NCBI GenBank assembly: GCA_958009085.1
Contig: OY253670.1
Span: 1,116,001 to 1,180,000, forward strand
Origin: Protoeuglena noctilucae
Taxonomy: Eukaryota
Length of the DNA stretch: 64,000 nucleotides
Direction: 5' to 3'
Every line of letters starts with the position of its first letter. Position 1 is the stretch's first letter. The position numbers and the translations under genes are program-made. The notes below the pieces were generated by a model that was given only the letters and a program-made list of their open reading frames with translations, had not been told where the DNA came from and made no database searches. Below, piece by piece: positions 36,067 to 51,600 of this stretch.

Positions 36067-39000
36067 ATGCAGGCGAAACGAATGAAGCCCATCGGGCCGA
36101 GTTTCCACGCCTCGACGACGGAGCTGCTGGATTGGGTGGCCGCCGTCACGAAGAGAGAGGTGAGCCACGTCATCCGGCGCTCGTGACGCGCAGGAGCTGT
36201 AAGCCCCTTTGCTTCCTCCCGGTTGCGGACGACGTCGGCTTGCTCGCGGCCGCTTTTGGGCCCCCCGGCGGTTCTTCCATTCCTCCTGCAGCGTCCTTCA
36301 CTCCATTTAACATTCCGCCCATTAGTTGCCGTTGCGGCGTCCACTGGCCTCCGCTCTGGGTGCACGCATTCGCGTCGCTTTGGTTGAATGCAGCGAGCGC
36401 AGGAGGCCTTTCCAGCGATGCGCACAAGGCGTGTGGGCTTCGTTGCAAATCACCGATCCTGTCCCTTGCTGCAGATCCTGGGCATCGATGACATCCGCGA
36501 CGGGACGGCCCTCTTGCAAGTGATGCACGCATTCAATCCCGTCGCCGTGCGTGGGACGGCCATTTACGAGAATCCGACCATGGACTGGGAGATGGAGAGG
36601 AACTATCAGGCACGTTCGCGTTCCGCCCACTGCGTAGGCTCGCCGGTGTGGCCGGCGCAGGCAACTGCATCTCCGCACGCTCCCCGCCGCAGGTGCTGCA
36701 GCGCGGATTCGAGCGGACGCCGGAGACGGCGGCCATCCGGGTGAATGTACCCGCGGCCATCGCGGACAGCCCGTCCCATCGCCTCACGATCCTGCAAATG
36801 CTGTACGCGACCCTCGGCCCCCCCGGCGGGTTCACCTCCGACTTCCGCCGGCGCTCGCGGTCCCCCGCGCCTGACATCACTGCGAGCTGGAAGCCCCCCC
36901 GGAGGTCCCACGCGCGTCCAACGGCAGCCAGCCGGGCGGTGAGCCACCACACACGCATGCAGCACATCCCGCTGGCACACCTGCCCGCGGCCACGCCTAT
37001 GTCCCGCCTCGCCTCGCCCCTGCAGTCTGCGGGATGGACGCCGGGACTGAGCCGCCCCCCGTCCGCACAGTCCTCCGCCAGCTCCCGCGCACGGCTACCC
37101 AGCAAGCCCGGAGCTGCAGGGCGGGCCAGCTACCCCAACCCGGCCACGCGCCGCGAGGCCCGCCACCCGGCTGTGCCTACCCGCGCGCCGTGGAATTCCT
37201 CCACGGCCGTCCGCCCCGCCTCTGCCTGGGGCCCGGGCGCTGCGCCGATGCGGCACAGCGTTGACGTGGGCCCGTCCACCGCATCAGACAGCCTGGCGTT
37301 CGCCCGGGGCAAGCAGGGCGCGCGCGTGGGGGCGTCCGTTGGGGCCGTCCCGTTGGACTCGCTCTTCGGGCAGGACGTGCGCAACAGCAGGGGCCCTGTG
37401 AGGTTCCGACGGCCCCGCCCCCCGTCCGGCAGTGGCGCAGCAGACGCGGCCAAAGGTCATCTGGAAGACGGCTGGCGGCCGACAATGACGGCGTCGCGGG
37501 GAACGACGTCGAAAGAAGCCGCGTCTCGGTCGCCGAAGCGGGCGGCGGCGGTTGATGCGACAGACGTGGCGCGGGGCGGCGGTGGCAAGGGCGCGGCGCA
37601 GCCGGTGAGACAAGAGAAGGACAAGCGTTCACACGCCCTGCCTTCTCATGCGTGCAGTCGAGTTCCATAGCCGCTGCGCTGTTGGGTGGGGGTTTCCCTT
37701 GACGCGAGTGCACATCATGGCAAGGGCCCTCGCAGGACAAAAAGGCGGGCCATGGGCGCACGCGGTCCCGGCCTCTGACGTTTAAACAGCTGGAGAGCCT
37801 CCATAAGACGCCGCGGAGGGAGTTTGGGGCCGACGGCGGTTCCCGTGCGGCCCAGGGCAGGCGGGGCACTGGCGCTGCTCCCGGGGACCCTCGGCGTGAG
37901 GCCCGGGACGCGGCTTTCGAGGCCGCGGGCGCGGCGGTCGAGCTGCTCTACCGGTGCGGAGCGTTTGCCTCGGTTACACCTGGTGTCTGCTGACTGGCTC
38001 GTCCATTGATCGCATCCGCTCCCGCCTTTGGCCTTTGGTCAGCTCTGGGCCATGCTGCGTCTCTGGCCGCATGACCTCTTGCGCCTAGCTTGCCACCTGC
38101 CCTGCCCCTGACCACCTGGGCTCGACCGCGGCCCTCGCTCCCCTGTGCGCAGATGCGTGCCGACCATCACGGTATTGGATGAGGACGTGCAAGACGATGG
38201 GAGGGAGGAGTACCAGTCCCGCATGCGCATGGTCGCGGCGCTCCTCGTGGTGAGCCCCGCTGGCGAGGGCAGGGCGCTGGCAACAGCTCAAGAGATAGAC
38301 TAGCATGTCCGATACACGGGGTGTGGCATGCGTCACGCGGCCATGCATGGACTGGCACGTGCGGTTCAGCAGTGCGACTGGCGCGTGACGACGTGTCCGC
38401 TGTGCCGTCCGTCTGCAGTCGGCCGCACACCTTTTGGAGGACCTCCTGTCGGCCCAAGGCGGCCCGCCCTTGACGCAAGAACAGGCGGCCCACCTGCGCC
38501 GGTGGCTGCGGGAGAGGCGGCAGATCGAGGCCGTGTTCCTCGACTACTGCAACGCCAAGGCCCTGGCGGAGGTGATTGCGAGGACTGCGCCGTGGGGCAG
38601 GGGAGGGGCGGGGGTGGCGAGTGCGAGTGGGGCTGCAGATGTGCAGGGCGCTGTGTCTCACGACAAAGCGGCGGAAGATGGGGATGCGGGGGAGCCTGCA
38701 CGGGGAGAGGGGGATCGGAGCAGTGCGGAGGGCGAGGCGGGGCGCGCGGTTGCCTCACGGACAGGATCGGCTGCGGGCGTGGACATGGGTGCGGGCGCTG
38801 GTACCGGGCAGAGGGAGGTGGGCGGTGAGGACAGCAGCGAGGGGACGACCGGAGAGGTGGAGGCGGGTCAGTCGGCGCCCAGTCGTCGGCTCCCGGACGC
38901 TTCCCTGGCGGAGCAAGTGCTGAGGGCCGAGTTGGCGCTGCGTGCGACACCGACGCAGCAGCCAGGGGCGGAAGAGAGGGGCGCGGGGGATGCAGAAAGG

Positions 39001-42000
39001 GCAGGCAGCGAAGCAGAGGCCGCATCGGGGAAGGCGGAGGCCTTGACTGGTGACGGCAGTGGGGAGGTGCCGAGGTTGTCGCAGACGGGCACCGAGCATG
39101 GGCAGGGGGAGTTCGACGGGGAGAGCGTTTTGAGCGCGCTCGCGACGATCCAGGCGATGCGGGAACGGCTGCGGGATCTCGCCGCGACCCCTGTCCGCGG
39201 CACGGCTGCGGGTGAGGGCCAACGGGTGGGGTCGCCGGGGCGGTGGCGGGTGTCGGAAGAGGTGGTAGGCGGCGCGGGAGCGGAGGGAGAGCCCGGGGCG
39301 GCGCCCCACACCTCTGCGACGGAGGTGGAGGGCGGCGGGGTGTTCCTAGGCATTCGCCCGGCCCCACGGCCCACAGCGCAGGCGACCAGCGGCGTACGCG
39401 ACTCCCGGCCCGCGTGGGGGTCCCCCGGGGCGTCGCCCGGCCGCGCCAAGTCGCCGAACGGCGCCGAGCGGCGGTCGACGTGGACGCCGGCCGCGAGGGG
39501 TGGTGCGCGGGGACAAGGCCGCAGTAGCGGCGGTGGGGGGGTCGCAGACCGGGGCGGGAGCGGCGACGGCGGCGGAGGCGGCGAGGTGGGAGTTGGAGCG
39601 CGCCAGACGTGGACGCCCGTGGAGGTGCCGCCGTATCCTCATGCCAAGTCACCGTCTATCACGCCGGGCAGGCGTGGCACGGGCCGGTCATCTGGGGGAG
39701 CATCCAGCCCCACGCGAGGGTCCCCCGGTCCACAGAGGCGGAGCGTCTCTGGCATGGTGGTGGCGGGGCTCGCTCCTGGGATGGACGAGGCGCGGGGAAG
39801 GGGGGCGGGCGTGGCAGGGGCGGGGGTGGGGGGGGAGGAGGTTGAGGCAGGGGACATGATGGGAGGCGAGAGCGGGGGAGACGGGGGCGTGGGGTGGCTG
39901 GTACCTGAGGATGAGGAGGGGCGTGGGGCTGAGATCTCTCCCAAGGATGGCAACCTTGGCAGGGAGCGGGACAGTGCGGGGACAGGGGGTGCCCGGGACC
40001 TGGCAGAGGCGTTTGGTGGGGCCGCAACGGTGCGGGATGGGTCGCGATTGGAAGACGCGGCGTTGGGAATGGGCGGAGAGGGTGCGGGAGGGGCAGGCGC
40101 GGGCAGGGAGAGTGCAGGAGGGGCGAGCGTAATGGGTGCGAGTGAGGATGGGTTGTATGGGCAGGCAGAGGTGGACGCGGGGGTAGATGCCGACGTAGAG
40201 GAAATGCAGAGACTGGCCCAGGAGCTGAGGGACCTGGAGGGGCAGCTGGGGGCGCTGGCAGCGGGGGCGAGCGACGAGGAGGACGCCGAATGGGACGGGG
40301 AGAGCGGGGGAGATGGGGCGGGCTCGGGGGGTGGGCGGCCTTCGGCGTCGCCGTCCCCCGATGCAGCGCCACCTGCCACGGCACCTCCCGGCGCCGCGTG
40401 GGCTGCGGGAGATGCACAAGCAGAGGAGCGGGCAGAGGAGCGCCGTGGGTCCAGCCCCGGTGCCCAGGACCCGCCAGGGCCACGGCAGAACCCTGCAGCG
40501 GGTGACCAACCTCGCAGCCGCGACGGCGTTGCACCGGGCTCGCCCCAGCGGGGCTCTCCGTCCCCGCAGCCCAACTTCCCAATGCGTGGGCCGTCGCTGT
40601 CGCCGTCCCTGACCCTTGACTCCCCCATCCGCGTCGCCTCGCTCTCCCGGGGCTTCTCTGCCGGGGTTGACTCCTCTTCAGATGTCGACGTCGATGCTGA
40701 CACCGACACCCATCACCCCGACACCCATCACGACCACCGTGGTCCGAGGTCGCCGGTGCGTGGCTTCTCCCTTGGCCTTGGGACGCCCTCCGATACGGCC
40801 AGCCACGCGGGGACGCCGCAACGCGGGACGCCGTCCTCGGTCGGCGAGGGGCGGGGGCAGGGTGGGGTTGGAGAGGTTGGGGAGGGTGTGGGTGCGGGCG
40901 CTTTGCAGGGCCAGGGTGGGCGTGGGGAGGTGGGGGAGAGTGGGAGTGCAATGCAGGGCAGGGACGACTCTGCTCGGAGGTCGCGGGAGGCGGGGGGCGC
41001 GGAGGGAAGCCCGGCTGTCGTTGCAACCACGCCTGCCACGCGGCCTTCCCTCTCTGAAGTGGCGCGAGGGGCGATAGCCGAGGCGCTTGCCACAGCGACC
41101 GACGCAGCCCCGTCACCGTCGCCAGGGGCGGGAACGCCGTTCGGAGCCGCCTCATCTCCCACCCCACGTCCGTTCACCTTCCTGGGCACTGGCACCAAGC
41201 CGATGGCGAGCCCGTCCCCAGTCATGGGCGCGGACGTGACGTTAGGGAACCAGTCCCCCGCGCCGCCCCACCGCATGCAGTCCCTGCCGCTGCTCGTGCA
41301 AGTGCCCTTAGAAGAGATGCAGGTGGTGGTGGAGGGCGGGGAGGTGGGCGTGGAGAGCAGTGGGTCGGCAGACGGCGACGTGTCGGTGGTCCATGTCGCG
41401 ACCGAGGGCGGCGCCGGGGAGGCCAGGGCGGACGGCGACGAGGCGTCCGACTCAAGCGACGTGCAAGGAGACGCCGAGGGAGGCTCGCCTGCCATGGCCG
41501 GGTCACCGCCACCGCAGTCGCCGCCTATGCAAGCGGCCACCACGCCCGCCGCTGTCCCTGCGCCGTCCCCCAGCGGCCCCCAGGCGCTGCTGTCTCCCTC
41601 CATCGCGGCCCTGGAGCGCGCCGCCAACGCCCCGCTCTCCACGCCACCCCCGCTGCTGCGCACGACATCGACGTCCACCCAGGCCGCCCACGAGGCACCC
41701 CCCGTGCCCCAGCTGCGGCCCCGGGGGTCCCGCAAGCTCGTCTCCCGACCCAGCGTGGTCACGCTCACGCGCACGGTGATGGTGTCTGACGCCAACGAGG
41801 TGTACATTGGGGACGTGAGGAGCGGGGCCATGGACGGGTATGGGTGAGGGGAGCGGAGAGGGTTGGGGTAGAGGGAAGGGGAGGAGGTGAGGGTGATAAG
41901 CGCGGAGTGGGTGGATGTGCTGGCATGGATGAGGAAGGGCGACTAACAGCAGCGTGGGTATGCAGCATGGTTGCATGGTTGCCCCACGCACCCCACACCA

Positions 42001-43686: not shown

Positions 43687-44014
43687 TTGCGGTGTTGCGA
43701 GGCGTGAGGAAGAGAGGGGCGAGAGTAGGCGCTGCTGTTGGGCGATAGGACAATAGGGCAGTTCGATAGGGCGCCGTGGGTGGCGTAGGATGAGAGCCGC
43801 GATAGGGGACACGTTTGACAATGGCGCGTGAGATTGGGCACCGTAGGCGGGCGTTCATACTACTCATGGTGCCAGCGGGTGGCACTGACTCTCACCTCGC
43901 GCTTTGCTTTGCGTGTTCCTTTGCGTAGCTGCTACCGATTCAATCTAGCTAGTACTACGTGCAGCGATACGCCCACTGCGCACTTAAGTCACGCACCGAC
44001 AGTTATCACAAACG

Positions 44015-47000
44015 TCACCGCCCGTGCCCCGTGCCGCTGCTCCCGGCGCCGGCATCCCGCATCGCCCACCGTCCCTGCCCGCCCCCCTCAATCTCCACCA
44101 CTGCGTCATGCAGCGCCTCCAGCGACGCCCCGTGGCCCACCGTCACCACCGCCACGCCCCGGGCACGCAGCGCCGCGTAGACGGCCGCCTCCGCGTCCCC
44201 CGGCAGCGCATTGGTGCTCTCGTCCAGAAACGCAACCAACGGCCTGCACGCACACGCGGCTACACATCTCAGTGATAAGACCTTTCGCCACCCAAGCGCC
44301 AGTCTTACACAGGAAGGCAATATATGGTTCTACAGAGCAACACCATGTCCTCCACCCATCCGCCCACGTCGCGCATCCCTCGCCACCCCAGCCAGCCACG
44401 CACCTGTGGTACAGCACCCGTGCCACCGCGACCCTCTGCTGCTCCCCGGGTGACATGGCCGCGCCCCACCGCGCCTCCCGGTCCACGTCGCCACCCACCC
44501 TGGCCAGGGCATCCCCCAGGCCTGCCCCCTCCACCGCCTCCCGCACCCGCGTCTCCTCATCAAAGGACCCACTGGCCGTGACTGAAAGCGGGTATACCAC
44601 CTGCTGACGCAGGGTGGTCAGGCCGGGGTCTTCCCCAGTCCCGACCGCCAGGAGCGGTCGCTGAGGCAGGAACATGACACGGTCGTGGGGTGGCAATGCC
44701 ACGTGGCCGGAGTGGAGGGGCCGCAGGCCGCAGAGCGACCGCAGCAGGGTGGTCTTGCCGCAGCCCGACGGCCCGCGCAGCAGCAGGGCGCCCCCGGCAG
44801 GCACCGACACCGTCAGTCCCCGCACGGCCCAGCGGCCGTCTGGGAGCGCGCACGACACGCCGGTCAGCGCCACGACCGGCGCAGCACCGCTACCACCTGC
44901 GTCCGTAACTATCGCCGGCCCTGCCTGGCGATGGGGCCAAGGTGGATAAGCGACGGTTGGTGCGCGTGACAGGGCCTCTCGCACTGCAGCCGCCGCTGCG
45001 TCAGGCGGGGCGGTGGTGAAGAGCGTGGCGGGGTAGACGCGCGTCCCGACGACGGGGTGCGAGAGGAGCGGCAGAGGGCCCGCGTCGTTCACGGAGTAGC
45101 CCAGGAGAGTCCTCGCGCCACGGACCTCGCTGTAACGCTCTCCCGGGGTCCCTCTCATGGCCAGGCCCGTCAGGGGATCTGCGGATGAGGTGGCGAAGAG
45201 AGATTTGAGACGCTGTTGTGTGCTGACTGCCACAGGGAGAGGAGCGTATGTCATCTTAGGGTTTGGTGGTTGCAGGAGGAGGGTCGATGGGGAATGGATG
45301 TGTCGGCGACCTTCCCAGGCACTCACAGCCGGGACTGCACCACCCGGCTCTGGTGATACGCATGAAACACGACAGGCTTTGATGCAACATGAAAGTCCAT
45401 TCCGAGTCTCACCGATGGAGCAGCTCCAGTGCCCCAGCCGCCCCAGCACCGCCTCGACCGCCTTGGATGCTCGGAAGAAGGTCTGAAGCATGCGGTCCAT
45501 CTCCTCAGCCACCTCTGCGAGAACGAAGAGAGCCAGGCGATGAGAAGAGAGGCGCAAGGGCAGACGCGAGTAGAGAGACTCGCAGCTGCTCACACCCGCT
45601 CCTGCACCCACACCCACACCCGCACTGCTAGCAGCTCACCGGTCCCGCCGTCGCCCGCCAGCTCGACCTGGCTGCACTGCATCGTCACGATGGCCGTCAG
45701 CGTCCCCGGAGAGTGGATCGGCGCATCGGGAAACACCCCTGCCACCACAGCCGCCAGAGGAGGGCCCAGTGCATGCACCGACACCTCCAACTGCCCCGGC
45801 AGCCATGCCGCATCGCCCGCACTCCATCCCACGGAAGCCTCTCCTCCCGCACGCGCACCACCCTCCATCCCAGCGCTCCCGTTGCTCGCGCTCGCCCCGC
45901 CACCCCGCTGCCCACCCATCGCTGTCGGCGACGCCTTTCCCCCGTCATGCAGACAGAAAAGCGTCGGTGGTTGAACCGTGCACGCCTCCGGGTGAGGTGC
46001 ACCGACGCCAGGCAGCACCCCAGGCCCAGCCCCATCCCTCCCACGCCTCTCAATGCCCGGCGATGCCCCAAAGAGCGACCCCTGTCGCGACATGGAGTCC
46101 CGAGACGTGACAGAGTCGATGCTGTTTCTGCAAGTGCACAAGATGTTGCGATCATCAGGGTCCCTAGTGTTACTAATCGATGCAGCCGCATGCACAGGCA
46201 CGGGAAGGCGCGCAGCAAGGTGGCGGGCCTCCTATGGCTCGGCCCTTGCGATATCCTCGCTGCTCAGCAGGAGCTGGCATGGCAACAGCCGCTGCCCTTC
46301 ACCTGGGACGCGGGGCAGTCCAGCCCCCGTACGCCCTCATCGCTGTACCGTGCTCGTTTGCGTAACCGCCCTTTCCGCCCTTCCCCATCCGGGCCACGTG
46401 AGCGTGCGTCAGTCCCAGCACACGCAGAGCAGCGCCCACGCGTGCGGCGAGGCCGGCCAGGTCCGCGCAGTCCCTCGCGGTACCCAGGACCTGCGATGCA
46501 ACGCACGGGTGAGGGCGATGGTTACAGTCCCTGCACAGGGCTGCCCAGGACCTGCAATGCAACGCACATGTGGGATGATGGATGCAATCCCTGCAATGCC
46601 CCATCCAACTCTGCCCCAGTCACGGCCTCGCCTGCGTGAGGCTGTTGATGAGCATGAGGGTGGCGAAGGAGGCCGTGGACACCAGCCGCGCCACGTCGCC
46701 ACCATCCCCTGCCGCCCTCGGCGCCAGAAACACCGCGGCCCCGATCACGGCGTAGTTGACCACGGACCCACCGTAGTCGAGGATCTGGGAGACAGCAGCG
46801 AGGAGCCAGCGGCGGAACTGCGGCGAGGGAAGGGAGGCCACGGCACTCTGTCCCACACGTCGCCCATGATTGATTGCTGTCCCTGCCAACCAAAGTCGGG
46901 TTCGCATGTATGGCGCTGCTTTGACGGTACGGCACAGCGGGCTGAAGAGTGGCGGGACGCAGCATACGCATCGCAACCCCACGCGCATGCGTCCCTCACC

Positions 47001-48313
47001 ACGATGCGCCCCTGGTTGTCGACGGCCCTGCTGAGGGCGCGCATGACGACGGCGGACTCGGCGCCCTGAGCCCGGCTCATGGCCACGTCCTCCCTTCGAT
47101 CCCAGAGGCGCACTGCGGCAAAGGGTGCACAGGCAGATAGTGCGTTCCCTTTCCACAGGCATGGCGTGGCATAACATGGCATGACATAACGCACCACGCA
47201 CCGTGGGCCGCACGCAAAGTGCCCTCCATGCGCTCCTGGTCCGCCACGAGGCGTGCGATGGATTTGACGAGGAACGCCTGGGCCGCGGATCCCGCGGCAA
47301 AGAACGTCACCGCTGCCAGGACGCTGCCCGCACCCACCAGGCGCACGCCCAGGGTGCCGTACTGCATGGGGCGAGCGGGAGGGAGCGCAGTGGGACCAGA
47401 GCTGGGACTGGTGGGACTTATGAGCGGGATTGATTGATGGGGCTGATGGGTGGGACGGACATTGCGTGGCCTGCGGTAGTGCCACTGCAGACGGTTGCAG
47501 GGTGGCAACGGTGTCTGTGGATCGTTGCGGACGTGTCGCTTACATCCTAAACAACGCAGGCACATCCGGGTGTGCACACTCGCGTCCGCTCACCCACACG
47601 ACCCGCAAAGGCGCGGCGAGGACGACCTTGAGTACGCGCGAGAGGGAGTCGCAAAAGTCCCGGAGATCCTGTGTCAGGCGCTGGTCCGGCGTGTCCAGGG
47701 ACGCCGCCCGCAGCAGGCCTCGGCCGCGGCAGTACTGATGCTGCGCCGCAAAGCCCAGCCGCCAGCGCCACCTGCGATGACGTTGCGAGCAAGCTGAGAG
47801 GCCCGGGACGCGCGTGCAGCGCAAGCGCAACGTCGTGCGACAGTGTCTCCCTACCTGTTGGACAGGAACTCCGCGGCAAAGTCCGTCGTGGCTGCGATGG
47901 CGGCGGACATCGCAAAGAGCAGCCCCGCGAAAAGCAGCGTGCGCAGGAAGAGTCCCGCATCGCGATCGATGAAAGCCTGGTAAAACCTCCCGTACATCAT
48001 CCCGGAGGCCGCGGTCACTCCCGACTCGAGGACGGAAAGAACGGTGAGCCATAGCGCACCGTACGGCCTGGGGGCGCGGAGGAGGCCGTCCTCAGGGACC
48101 CTGCGCACTTAGCAACGACCACTGCGATGCGTACATGATACAAAAGCGGCCATCGTCTCACCGCAGGACGCTGGCCAGGAATATGAGCTCCGCCAAGGGC
48201 CGCTGCCCTTTGGGATCCGCTCCGTCCCCATCCGATCCAGAGGCCACTCCCACCCACTTCTCCGCGCGGTCAGAAAGAAGCAGCGGCGCTCGCTCATCAA
48301 ACACCCCAGCCAT
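44015..48313 (-). CDS. ABCD4: ABC transporter subfamily D, ABCD4 (cblJ)-like half transporter with an internal MMADHC (cblD)-like domain
   Basis: TMD loop 'LDTPDQRLTQDLRDFC', Walker A GPSGCGKT, Q-loop FLPQRP, signature MSPGEQQR, Walker B AFLDESTNAL and H-loop TVGH. The MMADHC-like segment (~45006-45790) lies in frame between TMD and NBD. Confidence 0.9.
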
Positions 48314-48668
48314 CGCGTCGGTCCACGCGAAGAGCAGCCTATCGGCTCCTGCATCCCTTGCTTGCCATTCCTTGAACAGTCTTACACCCACAGGCGAGCT
48401 ATGCGTTCGACAGTTAGCAGCATGCTGAACTTTGAACATGGGCTCTCGTGATTTTAGTATCACACAGGACACGTGCTGCAGTTGCAGGACCAGCCTGTCT
48501 GTCTGGAAGCGGAGACAATTCCTTTTGCCATCGCTGGCACGGAGTAAGCGTCATGGGCATGCGCTCATTCGATGTCGCATCGTGATCTCTTTGTCGCGTG
48601 ATGAGGAGAGTGAAATATGGTTTATGCCATGACGTGATTGGCTCTGGCTGACCCGCGGCATCGGAGTG

Positions 48669-51600
48669 ATGGCCTGGAGGAGGAAACGGGGCAAGACCGG
48701 GAGGCCAGGGCGGCCCCCGCCCTTGTCTATCCCGGCCGAGGGGCCCGCCGCACTCGCCTCCCCCCTCTCGCCCAACTTCACGCTCGAGCAGGTGAAGGGT
48801 GGCACAAACGAGTTCATATATTGGTTTAGCCGCGACACATGCTAACGATGGGGTTTTCACGCACAGATGGCGTAAGCAATGCGACACGCCCCGTGTATGG
48901 GGATGCAGCCGCGATTCCGCGCCGTCCGACACCGTCCACCCGCAGGATGCCGAGTTTCCGGAATGGACAGTCGTGGAGCCATACCGGGACCCCCCGCCGA
49001 AGGCTGCAGAGCCCCCAATGCCCGGGCCCGCGCCCGCCCTGCCGAGTTTTTTGCAGCCCCTCGCGACCCGGTGGCCGTGGCTCGCGACCGCCGCATCCCA
49101 TGCACTTCGAGTGAGCATCGCGTTGACTTTCTCCACTCGACACCCCGCGTCCCTCTTCCCCTCGACCGGTGTCCCCCCTTCCTCGTGCAGAGCTGGCCCT
49201 TTGCGCAAGCCGCGGCCACCCCGCTGGGTCCCCCGCCGCACCCGCTCGCCCAGAGCTTCCCCGAGGGTGCGCGGCTCTCACACCTGGACGTGCCGCCCGA
49301 GCTCATCCCCGGATCGGACGCACCCCTACCCACCGTGCCAGGCCCGATGCTGGCGGGGGACGTGGCCCGACTGCGCCTGGCCGCCGCGGCCCGCGCCGCG
49401 CGTGGCGAGCGTGGCGCGTCGGATTCATCGTCCGACGAGTCCTCGGACGCCAGCAGTGGAGCCACGGAGGCGGGGGAGCTGGGGACGGCCAAGCGCCAGG
49501 GCAGGCGTGGGGCCAGAGGGGCGCGTGGGGGCGAGGAGGCGGACGCAGGGGACGCGGGCGACGGGGCGAAAGAGCTACTCACTTCCACGCGCGCGCCTGC
49601 ACCCGACGACGTGGAGTGGGAGAGCCAGATGGCGAAAGAGCTCGGGGTGTCGGCACGGAGGATCCCCGGGCCACGTTGGCATGCGGACCTGGCGCGCAGG
49701 GCCCAGGCGCTGGCGGCGTGTCCCGAGGCGCGGACGGCGACGGAGGACGACCGTGCGGGGCGGCGCATGTTCCCGATGCTGGCGCTGGTGGGGGCGCAGG
49801 AGGAGCCTTGGCTCACGGGGCTCTTCGAGTGCTGGCGTGACCCCTGGGTGGCGTGCAAGGGGGCGCTGTGCCCGTGCCTGCTCGTGCGAGGTGGGAGCCA
49901 GGCTCGCCTGCACGCCCCTTGGCATTGATACCCACTGCGTGTTGTCTGTGCTGCACCACTGCGTGCGGTCTGTGTTGCCACGCCCGACCGTGCCTTGCCG
50001 CCCCAGATGTCCGGAAGATGCTGACGAGGAATGCAGAGGCCGGCAACGCCGCCTGCTTCAAGTGCATGCTCAGCGTTTTAGTCGGATGCGTCCTGCCGCC
50101 CTTCGCCATCCTGCCGTGCTTCTCCGTGTGCCATCCAGGTGAGCTGCGACGCAAGTGCCTGTTGCTGCCGTCACTCATCGCAAGCGCACACTGCAGGGCA
50201 ACATGGGCAGGGTTAACAGAGCTGCACAGCAAGGCAGTGGATAGAACATGAATGGATAGGCATTCTCACGCAATGCTTTCAGCCCCTCTCTGCTCGCCAC
50301 CCCTTGCCCGCAGTCGCCACGCTGTTGGTGCTGCAAGGGACCAGTCGGTCCCGCGCGGCCCTGCGGCGCAAGTACAACTTGGAGATAGGCCGGTTCAGCG
50401 ACACGACCGTGCACCTCTTCTTCATGCTGTGTGCTCTGTGCCAGGAGGTGCGCGAGCTCAAGCGACGCAAGGCGACCCCAGGCAACTTCGGGCTGCTGCT
50501 CAGCGAGGCGGACGCCGCGGCGGTGCAGGCGGACGCGGACACGCTCCACGGCACGCGATCGGGGTGAGGGGCGCCGGGTGCATACCTGTAAGAAGTGCGG
50601 GGGACGCTTTTGTGGGTCGCACATCGTGGCCGCTGAATGAATGCATCTCTCTTCGACCCTCATCTTAGCCTGTGTGCGCCGCTTGCCTTTTCGTCAACCT
50701 CGGTCGGTGCGCCCTCGCAGGCCGGTGCCCCGTGACTTGGCCATCGACGCGGAGGAGGACGGATGGGTGGCGCTGAGGGTGTTGCCGCACTGGGTGACCA
50801 AGTGGGGCAATCCCCTGACGTACTATTCCATGACCAAGGAGGGGGTGCAGGTGCTGGCGGAGCGGTTGGCGGGTGGCAAGGAGGGCCCGGTGGCTCTGAC
50901 TCAGGCGCCGCGTCAGATGACATTGACGGCGGAAGACGCGAGGGGCGTTGCGGGGGGTTCGGGTGGCGGAGACGGGGCGCACGTGGCACAGGAGACGGGC
51001 GCGGTGGTGTTGCGGATCGATGCGGTGGGCGAGGGGGACCGGGAGGGGAGGCTGGTGTCGAGCGAGGGTGGCGGGACAGCGAGGGAGGTGGCGGGGGCGG
51101 TTGGGGCGGAGAAGAGTAGGGAAGGGACTGGGCAAGGGGCGCCGAAGCTGGATAAGGCTCCTGTCATGAAGGCGGGAGCGGGTGGGGCTGGAGATGTCGC
51201 TGCGGCACAGGGCGATGCGGGTGCGGGTGCGGGTACGGGCGGGAGTGCGGGTGCTGAAGCTGGTGGAGATGGGGCCGCGGGTGCAGATGCCGGCGGGGCT
51301 GCGCCCCTGGCGCCCTCCAAGAGTGCCGAGCAGGGCGTGCTCATCTCGGGCCTGATGACAGCGGTTGAGAAGCTGCGGCACCTCCCGTCCTCCCCGTTGG
51401 TGCGTCTGGCGGACATTCGTAAGTTCCAGCTGGGTCAGCTGTACGGGAGCCTGCAGTCGCGGTCCAAAGAGCACGACGAGGAGGGCGAGGGGCAGAGACG
51501 GGCGTCCATGGCGGGAGGGCGGGGCAGCGTGGACGAGCCATGGTGAGGGTCGTGCCAATCGCACTGTAAGAGCTTGCAATCGGCACTGGCACTGACAGTG

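Follow-up and report, generated by a model that had tools for sequence, protein, structure and literature searches.

An ABCD4-type half transporter with an internal MMADHC-type domain in Protoeuglena noctilucae and other green algae

We describe a gene of the green alga Protoeuglena noctilucae whose product is an ABCD4 (CblJ)-type half transporter with the C-terminal domain of MMADHC (CblD) placed between its membrane domain and its ATPase. The gene lies on the minus strand (48313-44015) of a 64,000-nucleotide stretch of contig OY253670.1 (assembly GCA_958009085.1, positions 1,116,001 to 1,180,000), which we call the window and whose first letter is position 1 throughout. The order membrane domain, MMADHC-type domain, ATPase had been put forward from the letters of the window alone (the original prediction), and spliced RNA, profile and structure comparisons and a family of relatives now place the three parts in this order in one transcribed gene. 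Considered as a whole, the data are best explained by a real, expressed fusion in which B12 export is coupled to a handoff at the exit, a reading that we regard as fairly probable.

The fusion is encoded by one expressed gene

Joining the exons by script gave a model of 11 exons and 927 codons in a single open frame, which passed a splice-site check and runs from an ATG at 48313-48311, taken as the start codon because it is the first ATG of the model, to a TGA at 44017-44015. On the minus strand the exons occupy 48313-48162, 48067-47855, 47771-47594 and 47361-47202 (exons 1-4), 47112-47000, 46817-46632, 46490-46303 and 46127-45640 (exons 5-8) and 45514-45413, 45178-44404 and 44243-44015 (exons 9-11). 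Nine of the ten introns have GT-AG ends; intron 6 (46491-46631) has a GC donor and an AG acceptor, its default cut being CC..CG with six letters at the joint that fit on either side. Intron 7 (46128-46302, GT..AG) stands between the membrane-domain exons and the exon in which the linker continues and the MMADHC-like domain starts, and it is spliced in phase (AG/A, giving Arg397). Introns 8 (45515-45639) and 9 (45179-45412) fall within the MMADHC-like domain and intron 10 (44244-44403) within the ATPase part. A G+C content of 66% across the window makes long open frames weak evidence, and the model is therefore founded on splice signals, homology and RNA.

A search with exon 10 for longer proteins yielded a pair that combine MMADHC (PF10229), ABC_membrane_2 (PF06472) and ABC_tran (PF00005) domains: P0002, a metagenome protein of 747 amino acids with 51% identity over exon 10, and P0003, a protein of 883 amino acids from Chlorella vulgaris that carries the database name ABCD4. 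The exons of the model are collinear with both by tblastn. P0133, from a member of the Pedinophyceae, aligned with the 927-residue model in a single blastp alignment covering residues 65-913 at 37% identity (E 2e-146).

RNA evidence came from four marine metatranscriptome runs of one study (X1-X4), whose contigs were aligned to positions 43700-48700; 25 of the 27 aligned records were at least 99% identical to the window. Spliced joints were seen for seven of the ten introns and every joint corresponded to an intron of the model: 48066/48161 (intron 1), 46489/46631 (intron 6), 45514/45640 (intron 8), 45178/45413 (intron 9) and 44242/44403 (intron 10) in runs X1 and X3, and 47361/47594 (intron 3) and 46127/46303 (intron 7) in run X1. 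Introns 2, 4 and 5 are supported by splice signals and homology; the aligned contigs hold no RNA joint for them, which is not counter-evidence. Two contigs bear directly on the fusion. One of 878 nucleotides (44659-45178, 45413-45514 and 45640-45895) contains the Walker A motif and all of the conserved portion of the insert and reaches into the linker. The other, of 581 nucleotides from run X1 (approximately 46010-46127, 46303-46489 and 46631-46906), connects the last membrane-domain exons with the exon in which the insert starts. The three introns proposed at first (46128-46302, 45515-45639 and 45179-45412) are thus removed in RNA at exactly these boundaries, in phase, and the junction from 46303 to 46127, which the original prediction had singled out for an RNA check, is spliced in the 581-nucleotide contig. 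We conclude that the model describes a single gene, real and expressed, from a marine green alga whose DNA is rich in GC and in introns.

A short duplication lies at the acceptor of intron 6: the 29 nucleotides around it (46483-46511) are repeated with 90% identity at 46544-46572, within the intron and 61 nucleotides upstream in transcript sense. The repeat, which may act as a decoy or be used as an alternative splice site, gives a look-alike acceptor at about 46551/46552, use of which would lead in frame to a TAA after nine codons.

The insert is of the MMADHC/CblD C-terminal type

Downstream of the membrane domain the protein runs into a low-complexity linker rich in Gly, Ala and Arg (approximately residues 361-507, 46414-45797), encoded by the end of exon 7 and, beyond intron 7, by the first two thirds of exon 8; no Pfam family was found in the linker stretches 45640-46126 and 46305-46619. 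The MMADHC/CblD C-terminal-type domain follows at residues 508-665 (45796-44964), spread over exons 8-10 with introns 8 and 9 inside. A profile was built from 34 short, Pfam-positive MMADHC proteins, a biased sample of the family in that they were picked among the matches to a fused insert; these residues of the spliced protein match it with 134.4 bits (E 2e-43 in a single-sequence search). Searched separately against PF10229 (cut-off 27 bits), the exon pieces reached 14.2 and 12.2 bits at collinear profile positions (170-200 and 229-267), and the unspliced open reading frame P0001 reached 21.1 bits. Fused relatives exceed the cut-off: P0002 at 28.9, P0003 at 42.8 and P0189 at 60.2 bits, with the MMADHC match lying between membrane domain and ATPase in P0002 and P0003. 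The motifs DP.TG and YPATLFT.AP are retained in the insert of the window. Exon 10 (45178-44404) encodes the last part of the insert and goes on without a stop into the Walker A motif; this continuity, part of the original prediction, was seen both in the translation and in the 878-nucleotide contig.

The family assignment, which had first been proposed from motifs of human CblD, was also supported by comparisons with solved structures. The insert of the Chlorella protein on its own matched the human CblD structure 5cuz with E 2.8e-9 and a mouse CblD structure with E 1.3e-8, and against 1.84 billion representative proteins it gave 613 matches at E <= 0.001; among the short matches, 63 of the 68 scanned belong to Pfam MMADHC. 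The fold was tested on the closest relative, P0002, whose insert was modelled by AlphaFold together with 40 relatives at high confidence (predicted local distance difference test score, pLDDT, 92.5; predicted template modelling score, pTM, 0.89) from an alignment that included true MMADHC proteins and so biases the model to that fold. In a Foldseek search of the PDB all eight matches of this model at E <= 0.001 were CblD structures (5cv0, 6x8z, 9mrs, 5cuz and 5a4r), with template modelling (TM) scores of 0.65-0.76, and the next match had E 0.019. The predicted fold of this relative's insert is thus the nitroreductase-like fold of CblD.

Comparison with human and mouse MMADHC, a B12 chaperone of cytosol and mitochondria (PDB 5cv0, 5cuz, 6x8z and 5a4r, and 9mrs with MMACHC and B12), shows a C-terminal fold that is alike at about 20% identity, in a different setting: MMADHC is a free protein, whereas the algal domain sits inside a membrane transporter. 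The insert corresponds to the C-terminal nitroreductase-like part of MMADHC only. Relatives match Pfam positions from about 122 to 265 of 272, those before about 120 being unmatched, and the N-terminal mitochondrial leader and the disordered region of MMADHC have no counterpart in this internal domain. A full-length model of P0133 (mean pLDDT 79, pTM 0.58) is confident for the membrane helices, for the insert and for the ATPase, and in it the insert was flanked by two stretches with pLDDT below 50, residues 306-373 and 590-609, the former being equivalent to the linker of the window protein and scoring 29-40. The insert is probably a module held flexibly between two linkers, and the model leaves its position relative to the other domains undefined.

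The transporter part is of the ABCD4 type

The membrane domain is of the ABC_membrane_2 type and takes up approximately residues 51-360 in exons 2-7 (48067-46415), with approximate boundaries. Among solved structures exon 3 (47770-47594) matched ABCD4 with 21.6 bits (E 0.002) and ABCD3 with 12.4 bits (E 1.6), its DTPDQRLTQD aligning with DNPDQRISQD of human ABCD4, and exon 6 (46817-46632) matched ABCD4 alone, weakly (E 0.25-0.42). The relatives P0002 and P0003 contain PF06472 with 89 and 119 bits, collinear in both cases with exons 2-7 of the window. At the other end of the protein the nucleotide-binding domain and a C-terminal tail (approximately residues 695-927, 44876-44015) are encoded by the end of exon 10 and by exon 11 and match PF00005 with 52.9 bits (E 7.5e-14). 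The translation contains the Walker A motif GPSGCGKT (44774-44751), the signature SPGEQQR, the Walker B motif LVAFLDE with its Asp-Glu pair and the H-loop VGH, and judged by these motifs the ATPase looks intact.

Placement among ABCD1-4 was made by comparing scores against solved structures. The whole protein P0003 scored 208 bits with ABCD4 against 109 and 103, P0002 scored 180 against 139 and 138, and a profile of 21 members of the fused family gave 480 bits for ABCD4, 291 for ABCD3, 283 for ABCD1 and 237 for Rv1819c of Mycobacterium tuberculosis. Human ABCD4, the lysosomal exporter of cobalamin (PDB 6jbj, 24vc and 24ve) and likewise a half transporter with ABC_membrane_2 followed by an ATPase, is therefore the best solved half transporter for the family profile, for the relatives and for the membrane exons of the window, with which it shares DxPDQRxxQD. 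What sets the algal protein apart is a stretch of about 330 additional residues between membrane domain and ATPase, in which the CblD-like domain has a linker on either side. By its membrane domain and the whole-protein scores of the family, the transporter is of the ABCD4 (CblJ) type. Bacterial Rv1819c (PDB 6tqe) and SbmA/BacA-type proteins have the same build of ABC_membrane_2 and ABC_tran, are annotated as vitamin B12, bleomycin or peptide transporters and dominate a word-based search with exon 10; Rv1819c scores far under ABCD4 with the family profile, and the precomputed Pfam lists of the bacterial transporters contain no CblD insert. A word-based search with the membrane domain of the Chlorella protein returned 27 proteins, none of them from animals.

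A widespread family in the green lineage

How far the architecture extends was assessed by a Pfam scan of the long matches to the Chlorella insert, 44 proteins of at least 329 amino acids among the best 150 of the 613 matches. Eighteen of these contained both ABC_membrane_2 and ABC_tran, and 11 of the 18 also passed MMADHC at 1e-6. The membrane domain alone was found in four, ABC_tran without the membrane domain in 12, MMADHC without ABC parts in five and no family at the cut-off in the remaining five; the first two of these groups consist mostly of fragments. Adding P0002 and P0003 to the 18 brings the full-length fused proteins to at least 20; the architecture, for which the original prediction had suggested a search in algae, does recur. 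Several of them are single open reading frames on metagenome or metatranscriptome contigs of 2.4-7 kb, which is evidence against chimeras of gene modelling.

The named fused proteins and further matches come from Chlorella vulgaris, Chlorella sp. A99, Micractinium conductrix, M. tetrahymenae and Myrmecia bisecta, and from Pedinophyceae sp. YPF-701 (CAG9461072.1), Chloropicon primus, Chara braunii, Chlorokybus atmophyticus and, as a partial protein, Tetraselmis sp.; Nannochloris sp. was added through the MMADHC profile alone. We take all named sources of fused proteins to be green or streptophyte algae. The named fused relatives, that of Pedinophyceae sp. YPF-701 included, have the same three-part, collinear architecture, and it is with them that the gene of the window belongs. 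They share about 30-50% identity with its protein, and their names are silent on the CblD part. As far as sequence comparison goes, the fusion is a widespread family of the green lineage, in chlorophyte and streptophyte algae, and not special to this alga.

A quick, unrooted tree computed from a short alignment of the insert with 69 rows and 160 columns split 27 fused from 42 standalone proteins by one branch (support of 94 in the Shimodaira-Hasegawa approximate likelihood ratio test) and paired the window with P0002. The tree allows a single origin of the fusion, with which it is compatible without proving it. A search for named standalone CblD proteins of green algae gave seven matches, all of them unnamed fragments, and three more distant ABCD4-like proteins had no insert by the MMADHC profile.

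In Chlorella vulgaris two proteins, P0300 (824 amino acids) and P0003 (883 amino acids), come from the same contig and the same gene, and their models differ by 59 residues. P0300 has no precomputed PF10229 match and a broken match to the MMADHC profile; the two may be isoforms, or the gene may have been modelled in two ways within the insert.

A proposed B12 handoff at the exporter and its alternatives

By analogy with ABCD4, the protein would work as a homodimer in the membrane of an endolysosome or vacuole, its ATPase domains in the cytosol, and would move cobalamin from the lumen to the cytosol. Two tethered CblD-like domains beside the cytosolic exit could then hold CblC/MMACHC, methionine synthase or both, and B12 might be passed on as it leaves the transporter, never diffusing free. 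The C-terminal part of human CblD suffices for the cytosolic methionine-synthase route, and it is this part that the insert resembles. In the alga studied here and its closest relative the insert would act as a docking adaptor rather than as a thiolate ligand of cobalt, for reasons given below.

Several observations weigh against this reading, beginning with the bias of the AlphaFold alignment mentioned above. The location, substrate, direction of transport and partners of the protein are all read across from human proteins. LMBD1 (CblF), the human escort of ABCD4, is reported among algae almost only from dinoflagellates (PMC11439496), and the algal pathway may thus differ from the human one. 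In the lichen alga Trebouxia (several species) the ABCD4-like proteins P0305, P0306, P0310 and P0313 are not matched by the MMADHC profile, the insert having been either lost there or skipped by the gene models. At the level of RNA, the joint 46127/46303 comes from one contig of one run, and the same contig extends 89 nucleotides past exon 6 into intron 5. Contigs of runs X2 and X4 are unspliced through introns 10, 9, 8 and 3 (43933-44302, 45088-45280, 45466-45679 and 47316-47532), and these pieces could be pre-mRNA, intron retention or carry-over of DNA. The remaining two points, the scores of the ATPase and the cysteines of the insert, are taken up below with the explanations that they favour.

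The sparse RNA at intron 7 leaves some room for an artefact in which two adjacent genes were read as one, a membrane-domain gene ending at the TGA 46301-46299 and a separate gene for MMADHC plus ATPase. Retention of intron 7 would indeed bring that stop into frame, and the prokaryote-style gene call P0001 (495 amino acids) comprises only the end of the insert and the ATPase. Against this stand the RNA contig that skips exactly 46128-46302, in phase and with GT..AG ends, the single uninterrupted reading frames that hold all three parts in relatives (P0002, P0146, P0154 and others) and the alignment of P0133 to the model in one piece; moreover, a membrane domain without an ATPase makes no working ABC transporter. 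We reject the two-gene reading on the strength of the RNA joint and the single reading frames of the relatives, and consider it very improbable.

With the fusion taken as real, one may still ask whether B12 is the cargo. The protein could instead transport acyl-CoA or other organelle cargo, having merely acquired a nitroreductase-like domain. Taken by itself, the ATPase domain scores slightly higher with ABCD1 (70.9 bits) and ABCD3 (69.8 bits) than with ABCD4 (65.2 bits) and so does not favour the last, and plant ABCD1 has the highest total score of all (636 bits), though as a two-half protein matched in four stretches. The original prediction had called the motifs of both domains ABCD4-like. 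DTPDQRLTQD, SPGEQQR and VGH are all present and the membrane domain favours ABCD4 as proposed, but those of the ATPase cannot tell ABCD4 and ABCD1-3 apart. It is, however, the membrane domain that sets the choice of substrate and its similarity to ABCD4 far exceeds that to ABCD1 or ABCD3, the family of the inserted domain is known only from B12 trafficking, and the joining of two parts of one pathway across many lineages makes chance hard to invoke. A different cargo thus appears improbable to us.

The cysteines raise a more serious objection. According to a preprint (bioRxiv 10.1101/2023.07.25.550549), Cys261 of human MMADHC serves as the cobalt ligand and Cys262 as the residue that resolves the bond, and the C261S/C262S protein is unable to load methionine synthase. 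The insert of the window has neither cysteine of this cobalt-sulfur chemistry: Pro628-Leu629 (45077-45072) stand in their place, as aligned by hmmalign columns with the human numbering taken from structure alignments. At the position of Cys262 a cysteine is present in all 42 standalone rows and in 30 of the 36 fused rows, and at that of Cys261 in 19 of 42 standalone rows and in none of the fused ones. Six fused proteins have a cysteine at neither position: the window, P0002, P0147 of Chloropicon, P0189, P0137 and P0188. The human type of chaperone mechanism can thus not simply be assumed for the insert of the window. The family may still use a thiolate, since 30 of its 36 rows keep the conserved cysteine, whereas the copy of the window cannot do so at that site; its loss there and in the closest relative makes a docking adaptor likelier than a cobalt ligand, and it is accordingly more likely, on the sequence, that this insert docks partners than that it binds cobalt through sulfur.

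An insert without these cysteines, with another role or none in this lineage, is the chief alternative to a B12 handoff. The fusion would then be real, with a separate standalone CblD doing the chaperone chemistry and the insert serving outside the handoff as a structural or regulatory module, for instance in gating or sensing, or decaying as a remnant. Besides the missing cysteines, the scores of the exon pieces under the Pfam cut-off speak for this reading. The rest of the domain is nonetheless well conserved (134 bits to the MMADHC profile, with both motifs retained), the domain of the relative folds with high confidence, the insert is transcribed and the family as a whole looks functional by its conserved cysteine. 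We therefore judge a role outside the handoff to be unlikely, less so than a different cargo.

We tentatively propose, as a conjecture that we ourselves rather doubt, that the ABCD4-CblD fusion has a single origin, no later than the last ancestor shared by green algae and streptophytes, and that it records a direct physical partnership which the separate animal proteins also hold, with CblD at the mouth of the lysosomal exporter and B12 never free between membrane and methionine synthase. Were this true, the versions without cysteine would show that the docking role is separable from the cobalt-sulfur chemistry. The route of B12 from lysosomal ABCD4 to the cytosolic chaperones is unsettled in human cell biology. 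A fusion kept across many green algae is Rosetta-stone evidence that exporter and CblD act side by side and hints at the same in other organisms, and the single polypeptide offers a means of studying the handoff by structure and biochemistry.

The original prediction knew of no description of this architecture, and we too found none of an ABCD4-MMADHC fusion in a literature search that covered few subscription journals. As far as their available parts go, PMC11439496 keeps CblD and CblJ apart in its scoring of more than 1600 data sets and does not mention a fusion in its text, PMC10828217 reports homologues of ABCD4 and LMBD1 in Chlamydomonas by BLAST and nothing further, and PMC8085122 lists PF10229 in a table without the words "fusion" or "fused". 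The gene is a real and apparently undescribed variant of known parts; the sequences are public and machine-named ABCD4, and the novelty lies in recognising their architecture. For the ecology of B12 in algae it follows that one green-algal gene may have been counted as both CblD and CblJ.

Additional observations

Seven long open reading frames near the gene, among them one of 1152 codons on the plus strand (38389-41847), matched no Pfam family and may be chance frames in DNA of this G+C content. Among the matches to the Chlorella insert, P0265 (749 amino acids) has Gpi16 followed by MMADHC and in P0204 (1924 amino acids) reverse transcriptase and RNase H come after an MMADHC-ABC protein; these two probably result from the merging of gene models and are not real fusions. 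P0252 (822 amino acids, from a metagenome) has a complete PrpD/MmgE 2-methylcitrate dehydratase preceded on its N-terminal side by an MMADHC domain (64 bits), another unexpected partner of a CblD-type domain and one that touches propionate metabolism.

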